In this document: positions 31,180 through 62,003 of the stretch, piece after piece | Position numbering within the stretch: position 1 is the first letter of the stretch | Layout of the letters: every line of letters begins with the position of its first letter | Source: Candidatus Eiseniibacteriota bacterium | GTDB taxonomy: Bacteria; Eisenbacteria; RBG-16-71-46 | Assembly (NCBI GenBank): GCA_041483195.1 | Contig: JBGPFC010000005.1 | Span: 6,679-70,678, forward strand | DNA length: 64,000 nt | Reading direction: 5' to 3' | The notes under the pieces: generated by a model | Seen by the model: the letters and a program-made list of their open reading frames with translations, nothing else | Told to the model about the DNA's origin: nothing | Databases searched by the model: none | Program-made: the position numbers and the translations under genes

Positions 31180-31255
31180 GGGCGATTAGCTCAGTTGGTA
31201 GAGCACTTGCTCGACAAGCAAGGGGTCACTGGTTCAAGTCCAGTATCGCCCACCA
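31180..31255 (+). tRNA. tRNA-Val (anticodon GAC), CCA encoded
   Basis: GGGCGAT/ATCGCCC acceptor stem, GCTC...GAGC D-arm, anticodon stem CTTGC/GCAAG with loop TCGACAA, and a TTCAAGT T-loop. Position 33 reads C rather than the usual U. Confidence 0.8.
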
Positions 31256-33182: not shown

Positions 33183-33857
33183 TCACTTCCCTCCGAAATG
33201 AAACCCGAAGCCCCCCGCCGCCTCGAAGCTGCTCGGCCACCACGTCACCTTCGCTCCCTTGTCCTTCGCCGTCGCGTAGCCCCACACGTTTCCAACCTGT
33301 CCGGCCAGACTCACCGCCGGCGAGATCATGATGAAGCCGCCGATTCTAGCCGAAACCCCGAGCCGGGTGGTGGTCGGACCGGTCACGTTCGAACTGGGCG
33401 GCGTCGTCCCGAACACGTTCTCGTACTTCGCATGCCCCGCCCAGTACTCGACGCCCGGTCCCGCGAACACCACGAGACGCTCGCCCACCCGGCCCACCCG
33501 GTCGCCTCCGACTCTCAGCTTGAACCCGGTCGATGAGTACTTGTGGTCGGGGCTGTTCGCCGGCGGGTTGTTTCCCGCGACATCCTTCTCGCTGAAGAAT
33601 CCGGCCGCCGCCGACAAGCTCAACGCGTAGTCGTCCCGGAGCAGGTACCAGTACTGTCCCCCCAGCTCGATCTGGGAGCTGGGATCTCCGGTATCGACGG
33701 TCGAATAGTTCGCAGCACCGACCACCGGATTCGCGAGGTCCGCCTGTCCCTGCCCGATCTGGATCGCGAATACGGATGAGCCGCGGCCCATGCCGAACGC
33801 GTCGAAGCCGCCCACGAGCATCGCGAGCACGGACACCACGATTGCTTTGCTCAGCAT
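33183..33857 (-). CDS. small outer-membrane beta-barrel protein (OmpW/porin-like, hypothetical)
   Basis: Signal peptide MLSKAIVVSVLAMLVGGFDAFG, alternating beta-strand pattern, and a C-terminal aromatic residue (FHFGGK). Confidence 0.55.
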   Translation of the reverse strand: MLSKAIVVSVLAMLVGGFDAFGMGRGSSVFAIQIGQGQADLANPVVGAANYSTVDTGDPSSQIELGGQYWYLLRDDYALSLSAAAGFFSEKDVAGNNPPANSPDHKYSSTGFKLRVGGDRVGRVGERLVVFAGPGVEYWAGHAKYENVFGTTPPSSNVTGPTTTRLGVSARIGGFIMISPAVSLAGQVGNVWGYATAKDKGAKVTWWPSSFEAAGGFGFHFGGK

Positions 33858-33987
33858 GTCAGCCTCCTTAGGGAAAGAGGGTCAACCACGCCCGATGACG
33901 CGAGGACCGCGGCAGGCTATGAGTGGGGTGGGGGAGTGTCAAACGCGTGGGAAGCTCCCGCCGCGACGCCCTGCACCCGATGCCGGC

Positions 33988-34016
33988 TTGCAATGCGGCG
34001 GCCCCGCCCGTAGACT
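33988..34016 (+). promoter_or_regulatory. candidate sigma70-type promoter for the infC-rpmI-rplT-pheST operon (TTGCAA-N17-TAGACT)
   Basis: -35 at 33988-93 and -10 at 34011-16. This leaves a structured 5' leader of about 215 nt. Confidence 0.35.
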
Positions 34017-34136
34017 GCCCGTCTATCGTCAAGCAGAAGCCCCGCGCTTCTCACCCGCTGCGGGCCCGTGCGGCCTCGCGTCAGGGTTCTCGGTTCCGGC
34101 TCGCGGCTGCATCACGAGTGGAGCGAATGGCGGCAA

Positions 34137-34181
34137 CGCCGGGCGGGGTCTTTTGTTTGGAGACCCCGCCCGGCGTTTTTT
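34137..34181 (+). terminator. intrinsic terminator inside the infC leader (candidate L20-responsive attenuator)
   Basis: Perfect 14-bp stem CGCCGGGCGGGGTC...GACCCCGCCCGGCG followed by TTTTTT, 58 nt upstream of the infC start. A second alternating-CG hairpin follows at 34182-34201. Confidence 0.5.
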
Positions 34182-34238
34182 CGCGCGCGCGACGCGCGCG
34201 CCGGGTATGCCGAGACCATTCACGCGGAGGTGACGACC

Positions 34239-34865
34239 ATTTCCCTGCCGAAGGTACCCGAAGTCCGTGTCAACGAGCGCATCCGTGTTCCCCAGGTCCG
34301 CGTCATTGGTGACGACGGCTCGCAGGTTGGCGTACTTCCGGTGCGCGAAGCGCTCACGCTCGCACAGTCCAGGGGCCTCGATCTGGTCGAGGTGTCGCCC
34401 ACCGCGCGGCCGCCGGTATGCCGCATCATGGACTACGGAAAATTCAAGTACGAGCAGAACCGCCGGGCGCGCAAGGCCAAGAAGAAGCAGCACCACATGC
34501 AGCTCAAGGAAATCAAGATGCGGCCCAAGATCGAGGAGCACGACTACACATTCAAGATCCAGCACGCCCGCGAGTTCCTCGAGCAGCGCGACAAGGTCAA
34601 GGTCACGGTCACGTTTCGCGGGCGGGAGATCGCCCATCAGGACATCGGCCACCGTCTGATTCAGAAAGTCATCGCGGCGCTGCTCGACGTGGCATCGGTG
34701 GAATCTCCGCCGCGCTCCGAAGGCCGTACGCTGACCGCGGTGCTGATGCCGAAGCCGCCCAAGACCGGCGGCAAGAGCGAGAGCAAGGACCACGATGGGG
34801 CGGTCGCCATACGGCCCCGCACCGAAAGCACCGGCCCGCGCGCGGAGACCGGCAGCAGGGAGTGA
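34239..34865 (+). CDS. infC: translation initiation factor IF-3, predicted AUU start, with a C-terminal extension of about 40 aa
   Basis: GGAGG at 34226-30, then an 8-nt spacer to the in-frame ATT at 34239. ISLPKVPEVRVNERIRVPQVRVIGDDG...PPVCRIMDYGKFKYE matches IF-3. The in-frame GTG at 34230 abuts the ribosome-binding site. Confidence 0.8.
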   Translation: MSLPKVPEVRVNERIRVPQVRVIGDDGSQVGVLPVREALTLAQSRGLDLVEVSPTARPPVCRIMDYGKFKYEQNRRARKAKKKQHHMQLKEIKMRPKIEEHDYTFKIQHAREFLEQRDKVKVTVTFRGREIAHQDIGHRLIQKVIAALLDVASVESPPRSEGRTLTAVLMPKPPKTGGKSESKDHDGAVAIRPRTESTGPRAETGSRE

Positions 34866-34871
34866 CGATCG

Positions 34872-35069
34872 ATGCCCAAGATGAAAACCAATCGAGCCGC
34901 CGCGAAGCGATTCAAGCTGACCGGCACCGGCAAAGCGGTACGCGCCAAGGCCAACCTGCGGCACGGCATGATCGGCAAGCGCCGCTCACGCAAGCGTCGC
35001 CTGGGCGGCACGGAGGTCGTGGCGGGAGTGGATCAGGCCCGCGTGCAGCGCATGCTCGGCAGACGCTAG
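34872..35069 (+). CDS. rpmI: 50S ribosomal protein L35
   Basis: [21 protein letters not shown]... Confidence 0.92.
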
Positions 35070-35141
35070 GCCAACCCACTCGCATTTCATTTTCCGGCGG
35101 CGCTCGCATGCGCATCGCGCCGGTTGAGGAGGACTCGTAGC

Positions 35142-35498
35142 ATGCCACGCGCAAAAACCGTCGTTCCGGGCCGCGCCCGGCGGCGCAAGGTACTCAAGGC
35201 CGCGAAGGGCAATTACAGCGGCCGACGGAAGCTCTACAAGACCGCGCTCCAGACCGTGCAGCGTGCCGGGCAGTTCGCATTCGAGCACCGCCGCCTGCGC
35301 AAGCGCGATTTCCGCCGCCTGTGGATCACCCGCATCAACGCGGCGGCCCGCATCAACGGGCTCTCATACAGCACGCTCATCTCGGGCCTCAAGCGCGCCA
35401 ACATCGACGTGAACCGGAAGCTGCTCGCCGATCTCGCGGTACGCGATGCCGCGGCGTTCGCGAAGCTCGCGGAGGCGGCGAAGTCGGCAGTCGTGTAA
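35142..35498 (+). CDS. rplT: 50S ribosomal protein L20
   Basis: GAGGAGG ribosome-binding site. [35 protein letters not shown]... Confidence 0.92.
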
Positions 35499-41871: not shown

Positions 41872-42068
41872 TAATCCCTGCCGTGCTCGTGATGCCACAA
41901 CGTTCTTGAACCAACACTTTCGTTCAGGGTGATCCGGTGGCCGGCGACGTCGAGCCGCGGCTCCCGCGAGGGAACGCGGAGGACCGACCCGGTCGTAAGG
42001 AGCACCCACCTGGCTCGCCAGGTCTCAAGAACGAGCGGGCACACGGCAATTCGGCGGGGAGTTGTTCC
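41872..42068 (+). ncRNA. ssrS: candidate 6S RNA (SsrS) or other structured ncRNA in the zapA-rny intergenic region
   Basis: The 278-nt non-coding gap shows long-range complementarity. 41880-85 GCCGTG pairs with 42042-47 CACGGC. 41901-12 CGTTCTTGAACC pairs with 42021-33. The two helices are separated by an asymmetric 15-nt bubble on the 5' strand, with internal hairpins such as CCGCG-agggaa-CGCGG. The motif TTGAACCAA...GTTCAGGG resembles a segment of E. coli 6S RNA, and zapA-ssrS synteny is classic. Confidence 0.4.
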
Positions 42069-49208: not shown

Positions 49209-49248
49209 ACCCGTCCTCCTGATTGTCGCGCGGTTCGCGCAATGGACC

Positions 49249-50208
49249 TCATGTCCATTGCGTTGCCCGCGCCACCGGCCGCGCGTACGCCCCGCCCGGG
49301 GCGTGCGCGCGGCCCCGAGGCATCGCGAGCTGGCCGCGGTGCGCGAGCCACTGGTCCATGCGCTCCGGCGTGCCGAGATCGATCCAGCCGCAGGGGGGAA
49401 GCATCGCGAGCCGCAGGTGCGCCGTCACGCGCTCGAGCAGGTCGCGGCCGAACTCGACGCGCGGCAGACCGGGATAGGCCCGCCGCGCCGCGCGCGCCGG
49501 AAGCCGGCCCTCGTCGATCGCCGCCAGGTACGCGTGGAAAAGCTCGGGCACCGCGCGCTGGTACGCGTGCACCAGAGCCCATCCGTTCGCCGCGAGCACG
49601 AAGGTGTTCCACACGCCGCCGATGCCCATGAGGCGCCGGGCTTCCGAGGCGTTCGGCTTCTCCACGAAGCTCGCGACCGGAACCGGCTCACCGCCGCGAT
49701 CTCGCCCCGGCACGATCCAACCGTACTCGGTGTCGGCCGCCGCAGGCGGTGCGCCCAGCACCACGATGTGATCCGGCCACGCGTCCGTGGCATGGACCAT
49801 CCCCGCCGCCGCATCCGCCAGCACGCTCTCGTCGTCGGCTTCGTGATCGGAGGGAAACACGACGATCGTCGCCGCGGGGCAGTCCCGCAGAATGTGGATC
49901 ACGGCATGCAGGAGCGCGACGGCGGTGCCGCGGTTCACGGGCTGGGACAGAACGTTCTCGGGAAGCAGCGCCGAGAGCTGCGGCTGCCACCACCGGCGCT
50001 GCGCGTCGACCACGACCGCGACCACGTGGCTCGGGCGCGCGAGGCGCGACGCGCGCTCGAGGGCGGCGTCCAGCGGGGTTCGACGATCGTCGACGCGCCA
50101 GAACTGCTTCGGAACCGCCCGCCCGAGCGCGTCGAGCGTGAGATGCGCGATGCGCCGTCCCTCGCCGCCCGCGAGCACGACGGCCCACACGTTTCCACGC
50201 TGCGACAT
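49249..50208 (-). CDS. sugar-phosphate nucleotidyltransferase (mannose-1-phosphate guanylyltransferase-like)
   Basis: WAVVLAGGEGRRI...PKQF matches the N-terminal NTP_transferase signature. Confidence 0.7.
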   Translation of the reverse strand: MSQRGNVWAVVLAGGEGRRIAHLTLDALGRAVPKQFWRVDDRRTPLDAALERASRLARPSHVVAVVVDAQRRWWQPQLSALLPENVLSQPVNRGTAVALLHAVIHILRDCPAATIVVFPSDHEADDESVLADAAAGMVHATDAWPDHIVVLGAPPAAADTEYGWIVPGRDRGGEPVPVASFVEKPNASEARRLMGIGGVWNTFVLAANGWALVHAYQRAVPELFHAYLAAIDEGRLPARAARRAYPGLPRVEFGRDLLERVTAHLRLAMLPPCGWIDLGTPERMDQWLAHRGQLAMPRGRAHAPGGAYARPVARATQWT

Positions 50209-61926: not shown

Positions 61927-62003
61927 GCGCCCGTAGCTCAATTGGATAGAGCGTTAGCCTCCGGAGCTAAAGGTTACAGGTTCGATTCCTGTCGGGCGCA
62001 CCA
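61927..62003 (+). tRNA. tRNA-Arg (anticodon CCG), CCA encoded
   Basis: Acceptor stem GCGCCCG/CGGGCGC, anticodon stem TTAGC/GCTAA with loop CTCCGGA, and a TTCGATT T-loop. Confidence 0.85.

Follow-up and report, generated by a model that had tools for sequence, protein, structure and literature searches.

A probable L20-sensing attenuator in the infC-rpmI-rplT leader of a Candidatus Eiseniibacteriota bacterium

Our analysis of a 64,000 nucleotide (nt) stretch of DNA from a Candidatus Eiseniibacteriota bacterium (assembly GCA_041483195.1, contig JBGPFC010000005.1; the whole stretch is called the window in the following, and coordinates are counted from its first letter) points to an L20 leader in front of infC, rpmI and rplT, whose products are the initiation factor IF3 and two proteins of the ribosome, L35 and L20. 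The leader carries an operator domain and a hairpin with the form of an intrinsic terminator; these parts are conserved and covary among relatives, and they can adopt two mutually exclusive folds. We consider it probable, with a probability of roughly 0.78, that the leader acts as an L20-sensing attenuator of infC-rpmI-rplT and that an AUU start codon adds a control on infC alone. The L20 attenuator itself is a known mechanism and not a new one. The element described here is a new, divergent member of this known class of regulators, in phyla for which we found no report in the literature.

Homology to the L20 leader family

The first-pass annotation of this DNA had raised the possibility of an L20-leader analogue with a terminator inside the leader, and had suggested a search with the Rfam model L20_leader (RF00558). 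At a relaxed threshold this model aligned end to end (model positions 1-127) to positions 34025-34183, though below the cut-off: it scored 22.4 bits where the gathering score is 58.7, with an E-value of 0.12. The conserved domain of the model matched the leader almost base for base; next to it comes a helix that opens with CC, and beyond that the terminator. Specifically, AAGCAGAAGCCCCGCGCUUCUCACC at 34031-34055 agrees with the RF00558 consensus AAGaAGAAGC.ACCCGCUUCUCgCC, and the 25-nt operator AAGcAGAAGC-loop-GCUUCUCACC differs very little from the consensus of the Firmicutes. Divided into its parts, the domain reads AAGCAGAAGC-CCCGC-GCUUCUCACC in the window and AAGaAGAAGC-ACCC-GCUUCUCgCC in the family consensus. 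The idea of an L20 leader is supported, and the element is a homologue of the Bacillus subtilis-type leader rather than a mere analogue.

The operator is laid out as an AA dimer, helix 1, a CUCACC junction and helix 2. The AA dimer (34031-34032) was invariant in all operator sequences found. In helix 1, G34033 pairs with C34052, C34034 is bulged, and AGAAGC (34035-34040) pairs with GCUUCU (34046-34051) around the loop CCCGC (34041-34045). This helix was 100% paired across phyla, with three compensatory pairs in members from Gemmatimonadetes and Firmicutes. At the base of helix 2, ACCC (34053-34056) pairs with GGGU (34084-34087), while its distal part is formed by GCGGGCC (34060-34066) and GGCC-u-CGC (34072-34079), with U34076 bulged. 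According to the alignment used, compensatory changes were detected in three to five of the seven distal pairs. At the operator junction, the CC/GG pairs were nearly invariant, and the adjoining helix 2 with its consecutive C-G pairs at the base would form the presumed L20 junction. A spacer hairpin follows at 34093-34124, whose sequence is not kept among relatives; a stem of this kind before the terminator has been reported for over 75% of L20 leaders (Deiorio-Haggar et al. 2013). We also considered an open reading frame (ORF) beginning at GTG 34068 and rejected it as coding, as it crosses the terminator and the insertions and deletions of relatives in this region are not multiples of three.

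Outside the window, the operator domain was found 150-250 nt upstream of infC in two Eisenbacteria loci (L001, L002) and a Gemmatimonadetes locus (L003); five Firmicutes loci and the actinobacterium Candidatus Aquicultor likewise have it in front of infC. Helix 1 of the Gemmatimonadetes locus reads GGGGCC/GGCCCC, which is a compensatory change. Scanning metagenome contigs with the exact operator pattern returned 85 places. An IF3 gene lies 117-352 nt past the operator in at least 70 of the 74 places with enough downstream DNA, the unit always having the same orientation as infC, and about 30 of these IF3 proteins are 70-87% identical to that of the window.

For the comparative analysis 30 distinct Eisenbacteria-like leaders were aligned (alignment A1), as was the operator alone across phyla (A2). 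Unguided RNAalifold on A1 recovered helix 1 including the closing G-C pair over the bulged C, the CC/GG base of helix 2 together with a 7-pair distal helix with one bulged base, and an 18-pair terminator. In this structure 95.2% of the alignment cells were paired, compared to 35-51% when the 3' partners were slid by one to three columns. A1 contained 15 two-sided compensatory pairs (12 in the terminator and 3 in distal helix 2) against 7.0±1.5 in shuffled alignments, and none of 500 shuffles reached 15. For A2, 92.8% of the cells were paired, with nine compensatory pairs, three of them in helix 1, against 3.2±1.2 in shuffles. These shuffle counts overstate independence, because the sequences are related and the search pattern had prescribed the operator side; the slid-partner control is free of this weakness.

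We further built a covariance model of the operator (R1) and ran it on the 80 genome loci with the IF3 proteins closest to that of the window. Matches were obtained only in loci of Eisenbacteria, Gemmatimonadetes, Firmicutes and Aquicultor, apart from a weak candidate in an Actinomycetota genome (L053, E-value 0.034). R1 found no operator upstream of infC in the loci of Deltaproteobacteria, Planctomycetes, Acidobacteria, Latescibacterota, Calditrichaeota, Ignavibacteria, Cyanobacteria, Nitrospirae and Gammaproteobacteria among these 80, so that the operator has a patchy distribution within the sample. RF00558 itself gave sub-threshold full-length matches on three of 14 relatives tested (L146, L090 and L097, 22.6-30.3 bits), and a Clostridia leader with a textbook operator (L014) likewise fails its cut-off. 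We regard the gathering score of RF00558 as the operational threshold of a mainly low-GC model and not as a biological feature.

Terminator and antiterminator

Downstream of the operator, two arms of 17 nt (34135-34151, AACGCCGGGCGGGGTCT; 34161-34177, AGACCCCGCCCGGCGTT) are 100% complementary and form a stem of 19 pairs when G-U pairs are counted (-40.1 kcal/mol), with a tract of six U at 34176-34181. The T-run ends 57 nt before the ATT start codon of infC. A perfect 14-base pair (bp) GC hairpin with T6 had been described at this place in the first-pass annotation; hairpin and T6 were as described, and the length is to be corrected to 17 bp, or 19 bp with G-U pairs. It is the sole perfect hairpin of at least 17 nt in the window. 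Whether the hairpin is conserved in the infC leaders of relatives had been named as a check, and indeed it is present in 30 of 30 relatives as an 18-pair helix that is 95.7% paired and has compensatory changes in 12 pairs. The predicted factor-independent terminator is thus conserved in structure rather than in sequence.

Stepwise folding of the window transcript from its presumed start at 34023 gave two alternative structures. Up to 34135 the operator forms, with helix 1 and helix 2. Up to 34160, where only the 5' arm and the loop of the terminator are present, helix 1 opens and 34030-34045 pairs with 34143-34159 in an antiterminator helix of 16 pairs with U34149 bulged (duplex energy -26.0 kcal/mol). 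When folding is extended to 34181, operator and terminator re-form at -84.8 kcal/mol, compared to -72.1 kcal/mol with the antiterminator forced. The 3' strand of the antiterminator is made up of terminator 5' arm and loop; this loop, UUUUGUUU, is the complement of the conserved AAGCAGAAG. Within the operator, GAAG-CCCCGC comes close to copying the terminator 3' arm GGAGACCCCGC, as is to be expected of a competing strand.

The same alternation was found in the relatives. In the nascent fold 29 of 30 formed at least 10 antiterminator pairs between the operator and the terminator 5' arm, and the full fold of the same 29 contained 15-20 terminator pairs. The antiterminator columns were 76% paired in the Eisenbacteria-like set, compared to 41-57% when slid. 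Across lineages the helix 1 loop and the terminator arm co-vary, for example GCCACCGC with GCGGGUGGC in Clostridia and CUGCCCGC with GCGGGCAG in the leader L088, so the antiterminator joining the conserved domain to the 5' side of the terminator is accompanied by covariation between lineages. Matched operator/terminator duplexes had a mean energy of -16.0 kcal/mol in the other phyla, against -12.9±0.4 kcal/mol for permuted ones, and of -23.7 against -22.0±0.3 kcal/mol in the Eisenbacteria-like set. The permuted mean never reached the matched mean (0 of 5,000 permutations in each of three sets).

Just past the U-tract lies a second hairpin with a GC-only stem of 8 bp (34183-34190 with 34194-34201), the alternating-CG hairpin that had already been noticed after the terminator. 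It is kept as GCGUGCGCG-YCA-CGCGCGC, with some compensating changes, only in the nearest subclade of about 10 leaders. When all relatives were taken together, the region after the terminator including this hairpin was no more structured than shuffled sequence (median z 0.08), and the second hairpin was therefore treated as clade-specific.

Promoter and infC start codon

A promoter of the form TTGCAA-N17-TAGACT and a leader of about 215 nt had been proposed from the sequence alone. The promoter is present, and 30 of 31 distinct Eisenbacteria-like upstream regions have it at the corresponding position as TTGCRY-N16-18-TAnnnT (mostly TAGACT). This conservation supports both the promoter and a leader of about 216 nt (34023-34238) ahead of infC, with a predicted transcription start near 34022-34025, about 7 nt past TAGACT. 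The distance from the end of the -10 hexamer to the AAG of the operator is 10-24 nt in the relatives, mostly 13-17 nt. A scan of the window with consensus descriptions of promoters and terminators listed neither the leader promoter nor the leader terminator. The promoter was missed because it scores 8 of 12 where 9 are required; the terminator, we think, was missed because the greedy stem extension absorbs the first two T and leaves four in the tail window.

The ATT that had been proposed as start of infC is in frame with IF3 and lies 8 nt past GGAGG, and the IF3_N domain starts at residue 11 of the protein read from it. This start is supported by the comparison: in the 57 related leaders for which automatic assignment of the start succeeded, 55 begin with ATT (37), ATC (15) or ATA (3), at 8-9 nt past GGAGG. 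Many of the related leaders have no GTG or ATG alternative, and the next in-frame GTG or ATG downstream would cut into the IF3_N domain. GTG 34230 was considered as a start and rejected. It is located inside the Shine-Dalgarno sequence, and relatives with the Shine-Dalgarno variants GGAGGGAAAC, GGAGGAAGAC or GGAGGTCACG have no in-frame GTG there, which indicates that it is merely part of the Shine-Dalgarno sequence. In Escherichia coli, the AUU start codon of infC underlies the autoregulation by IF3. The window resembles this system in its in-frame AUU behind a strong Shine-Dalgarno sequence and in the AUU, AUC or AUA of its relatives. An AUU start is the expected state for infC and nothing unusual, and non-AUG starts of infC likewise occur in Gram-positive bacteria (Choonee et al. 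2007, PMC1865079).

As a side observation, UCGUCA at 34026-34031 is exactly complementary to UGACGA at 34231-34236, between the Shine-Dalgarno sequence and the ATT, and the two are paired in the minimum-free-energy fold of the full leader. The pairing was not seen in L001 and is probably due to chance.

Proposed mechanism and alternative explanations

Transcription would start about 7 nt past TAGACT, and the first approximately 65 nt of the transcript would fold as the operator, from the AA dimer through helix 1 and the CUCACC junction to helix 2. When L20 is scarce, being taken up by newly made 23S ribosomal RNA (rRNA), the 5' strand and loop of helix 1 would be free to invade the 5' arm and loop of the nascent terminator. 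The resulting 16-pair antiterminator would allow RNA polymerase to read on into infC, rpmI and rplT. When free L20 accumulates, it would bind the junction of helix 1 and helix 2 and lock the operator, upon which the hairpin of 17-19 bp with its U6 tract could form and transcription would end at about 34181. For infC alone, the AUU start would render translation sensitive to the level of IF3 and thus act as a second, independent control. L20 as the ligand, actual termination in the leader and repression by IF3 at the AUU are what we infer from homology with the B. subtilis system. In B. subtilis, L20 footprints helix 1 and the junction of helix 1 and helix 2, makes helix 2 more stable and produces a toeprint immediately 3' of that helix; it traps the operator, which acts as an anti-antiterminator, so that the terminator can form, while without L20 the antiterminator is kinetically favoured and leads to read-through (Choonee et al. 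2007, PMC1865079). As far as can be read from the sequence, the anatomy of the leader matches this system feature by feature.

Several observations weigh against this explanation. The match to RF00558 lies far under its gathering score, and nothing in the leader is detected at the gathering threshold, so that the evidence comes from comparison and not from a database call. The U-tract is poor in several relatives, as in GUCGUUUCG and GUCCGGCUUUUU, and intrinsic termination may be weak in some of them. Column-wise covariation of the antiterminator was not significant in the Eisenbacteria-like set, where 2 compensatory pairs were counted and shuffles gave 1.1; since the search pattern left the operator side no freedom, variation there could not show, and the column test was replaced by the folding of individual sequences and the matched-versus-permuted duplex test reported above. 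The relatives are not independent, and shuffle and permutation tests are both inflated by kinship. Read-through from the leader into infC is, for this organism, a deduction from these comparisons.

The direct demonstration of rRNA mimicry failed: R1 gave no significant match on the E. coli 23S rRNA gene, the best one having 6.6 bits and lying on the wrong strand. Since R1 does not score the 23S site, mimicry would rest on homology with the B. subtilis operator. The window contains no 23S rRNA, and the comparison was made on that of E. coli. There is a resemblance of layout. The structure line of Rfam for E. coli 23S rRNA reads AAGA-[GGG AAACAA CCC]-AGA-[CCGC...], that is, a short hairpin after AAG-N, then 3 nt and then a helix starting with CC; we take these two elements to be helices 40 and 41 by standard numbering. 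The operator, AAGC-[helix 1]-CA-[CCC...], shares this layout, in a comparison of layout only. A separate operator-like place was noticed at the start of domain III (positions 1531-1575 of L166, the E. coli rrlH gene; 23S nt 1272-1316; AUAAAGCGGGUGAAAAGCCCGCUCGCCGGAAGACCAAGGGUUCC), with AA, a hairpin, CUCrCC and later CAAGGGUUC. In the Rfam structure line this place consists of a hairpin with the 5' strand of a long-range helix directly behind it. From the operator model it obtained only 0.5 bits, and this resemblance may be due to chance.

The same terminator/antiterminator switch might be set by something other than L20, either by L35 or IF3, both of which the operon also encodes, or by no protein whatsoever, the outcome then depending on folding kinetics, NusA or the rate of transcription. 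The assignment of the ligand to L20 is made by homology, and the comparison with the 23S site is a likeness of layout without a significant match of the operator model. Still, the part of the leader most conserved across phyla is the very domain in which L20 gives footprints and toeprints in B. subtilis. The invariant AA dimer and the CC/GG pairs of the junction, published as shared determinants of L20 recognition, belong to this domain, and we regard a switch set by anything but L20 as unlikely. The unit from promoter to terminator (about 34023-34181) could also be read as a free-standing small RNA gene that acts elsewhere, with infC expressed separately. Such a gene would have its own conserved promoter and strong terminator, as this unit does, and the terminated infC leader of mycobacteria was first catalogued as the small RNA Mpr8. 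Mpr8 itself, however, is co-transcribed with infC. The unit described here always lies in the same orientation 117-352 nt upstream of infC, no promoter-like hexamers were seen in the 57 nt between U-tract and start codon, and a conserved antiterminator makes sense only if read-through matters, all of which renders a separate small RNA gene very unlikely.

Lastly, the hairpin could be an ordinary constitutive terminator or insulator shielding infC, its resemblance to the L20 leader being coincidental. GC hairpins are abundant in high-GC genomes (38 inverted repeats were listed in the window), and the E-value of the Rfam match is only 0.12. The comparative data already contradict this explanation, however, as the operator is found again before infC in no fewer than four phyla and no fewer than 70 metagenome contigs. 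In addition, the nearest upstream neighbour, the ORF at 33183-33857, is encoded on the minus strand, divergent from the infC leader, so that there is no upstream gene for a plus-strand terminator to end and the terminator sits within the infC leader. We consider coincidence to be the least probable of the explanations discussed here and highly improbable in itself. The L20-sensing attenuator accordingly remains our preferred explanation.

Genomic context

The features of the leader and the operon are listed in Table 1. Directly downstream of the leader Pfam matches identify IF3, then L35 and then L20, with a spacer of 6 nt between infC and rpmI (34866-34871). By Pfam, thrS (threonyl-tRNA synthetase) lies upstream of infC-rpmI-rplT and PheS downstream. 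In a collection with one genome per species the closest IF3 proteins were from two metagenome-assembled genomes of Candidatus Eisenbacteria (75% and 65% identity), followed by one from a Gemmatimonadetes genome (59%); the NCBI places Eisenbacteria within the candidate phylum Eiseniibacteriota.

Table 1. Features of the infC-rpmI-rplT locus and its leader (window coordinates).
Feature	Position	Strand	Basis and remarks
-35 hexamer TTGCAA	33988-33993	+	Read from sequence
-10 hexamer TAGACT	34011-34016	+	Read from sequence; 17-nt spacer from -35
Antiterminator 5' strand (operator 5' strand and helix 1 loop)	34030-34045	+	Pairs with 34143-34159
Operator, first part (AA dimer and helix 1)	34031-34052	+	Rfam L20_leader conserved-domain alignment; RNAalifold; 100% paired
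Operator helix 2	34053-34087	+	RNAalifold; pair counts in two alignments
Spacer hairpin before terminator ("fourth pairing element")	34093-34124	+	Minimum-free-energy fold
Intrinsic terminator (predicted)	34135-34181	+	Sequence, folding, conservation
Second hairpin just past U-tract	34183-34201	+	GCGCGCGC, loop GAC, GCGCGCGC
Shine-Dalgarno sequence GGAGGTGA	34226-34233	+	GGAGG invariant in 30-leader alignment
infC (IF3)	34239-34865	+	Pfam IF3_N and IF3_C; start ATT 34239-34241
rpmI (L35)	34872-35069	+	Pfam Ribosomal_L35p, E-value 1.7e-22
rplT (L20), presumed operator ligand	35142-35498	+	Pfam Ribosomal_L20, E-value 1e-39; protein from ATG 35142

The minus-strand ORF at 33183-33857 encodes 224 amino acids with a signal-peptide-like N-terminus and is rich in glycine, serine and aromatic residues. 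It had no Pfam match, and its product may be an outer-membrane protein. The Eisenbacteria locus L002 has no counterpart of this gene, and thrS directly adjoins the leader there. At Rfam gathering scores only two transfer RNAs (tRNAs) and a 6S RNA were matched in the window. The 6S RNA gene is located on the plus strand at 41872-42064 (RF00013, 67.5 bits), and the two tRNA genes, also on the plus strand, at 31180-31252 and 61927-62000. The former lies just upstream of thrS and within the 5' part of the mechanically called thrS ORF, so that the true start of thrS must be further downstream. Two adjoining strong inverted repeats were also observed at 49225-49314, the first with arms of 23 nt (78% complementary) and the second with arms of 18 nt (94% complementary).

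Distribution and significance

Published surveys give the L20 regulator a narrow distribution, and it is often cited as an example of a lineage-specific, independently evolved control of ribosomal protein synthesis. The L20 leader has been described from most Bacilli, many Clostridia and "a few" Thermotogae and Actinobacteria (Deiorio-Haggar et al. 2013), the mycobacterial example being Mpr8 (DiChiara et al. 2010), and the L20 leaders listed by Eckert and Weinberg (2020, PMC7247131) are limited to those of Gammaproteobacteria and Firmicutes and to their new deltaproteobacterial motif. Our full-text literature search found no paper mentioning the L20 leader together with Gemmatimonadetes or Eisenbacteria. 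The homologue described here is present in Eisenbacteria-like genomes and in a Gemmatimonadetes genome, and dozens of soil contigs of high G+C content carry it as well. Such GC-rich members escape the Rfam model and its threshold, and the distribution of the regulator has consequently been under-counted. Either the operator is of greater age than has been assumed, or it has passed from one phylum to another.

Six metagenome infC leaders (L087, L104, L130, L162, L110 and L095) carry the same operator (AAGCAGGAGCCG...CGGCUUCUCACCCCG) without a terminator with U-tract. They contain a C-rich stretch 30-60 nt upstream of the Shine-Dalgarno sequence, e.g. GCCGUCCCCUCCUGCC in L130, which can pair with the operator 5' strand or with the Shine-Dalgarno sequence. 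This may represent a translational expression platform on the same operator. We rate the chances as about even that the L20 attenuator is no speciality of the Firmicutes but an old or horizontally mobile device that is also used by Eiseniibacteriota and Gemmatimonadota, with the operator of some relatives coupled to an anti-Shine-Dalgarno sequence.

For the locus itself the analysis provides a correct annotation with a promoter, a 216-nt leader, an attenuator and the ATT start of infC, which gene callers would probably replace by GTG. At least 30 sequences are now usable for rebuilding the L20_leader family model. Taken together, this amounts to a solid annotation and a modest widening of the known phylogenetic range.

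Comparison with known L20 regulators

The translational L20 operator of E. coli resembles the leader described here in its presumed ligand, L20, and in a feedback through an rRNA-like site with an AA dimer. It differs in that it is a pseudoknot and stem-loop spanning the end of infC and the infC-rpmI spacer, which is only 6 nt long in the window, and in that it acts on the translation of rpmI, not on transcription, and has no terminator. This type of operator is confined to Gammaproteobacteria. The L20-Deltaproteobacteria leader (RF03126; Eckert and Weinberg 2020, PMC7247131) is likewise a candidate L20-binding leader in the same gene neighbourhood, but it is a 59-nt motif of another fold that is located downstream of infC, close to rplT. 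RF03126 did not match the window at its gathering score, and over 33800-35200 it stayed without a match even at E-values as high as 10. RF03126 leaders were observed in four loci from Geobacteraceae, Desulfuromonadaceae and Malonomonas (L007, L008, L009 and L011; 50-69 bits), about 270-330 nt past the end of infC. These lineages use the other L20 motif and not the operator upstream of infC.

The closest likeness is to the B. subtilis-type L20 leader (RF00558; PMC1865079). Both are placed before infC-rpmI-rplT and begin with an AA dimer followed by a helix 1 of nearly the same sequence (AAGnAGAAGC...GCUUCUCrCC). Both also have an adjoining helix 2 that opens with C-G pairs, an intrinsic terminator preceded by a variable stem, and a non-AUG start of infC. 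The leader of the window differs in its G+C content of 68% and its lack of the AU-rich linkers of the Rfam model, in the extra conserved distal helix GCGGGCC/GGCCnCGC of helix 2, and in the clade-specific second hairpin after the U-tract. Its 16-pair antiterminator is built from the 5' strand of helix 1 together with the helix 1 loop and extends into the loop of the terminator, whereas in the Firmicutes loci examined the loop and the 3' strand are used. The host is Eisenbacteria-like, while the published distribution comprises Firmicutes and a few Thermotogae and Actinobacteria. The differences from the Firmicutes leaders are of the kind that is usual within one family.

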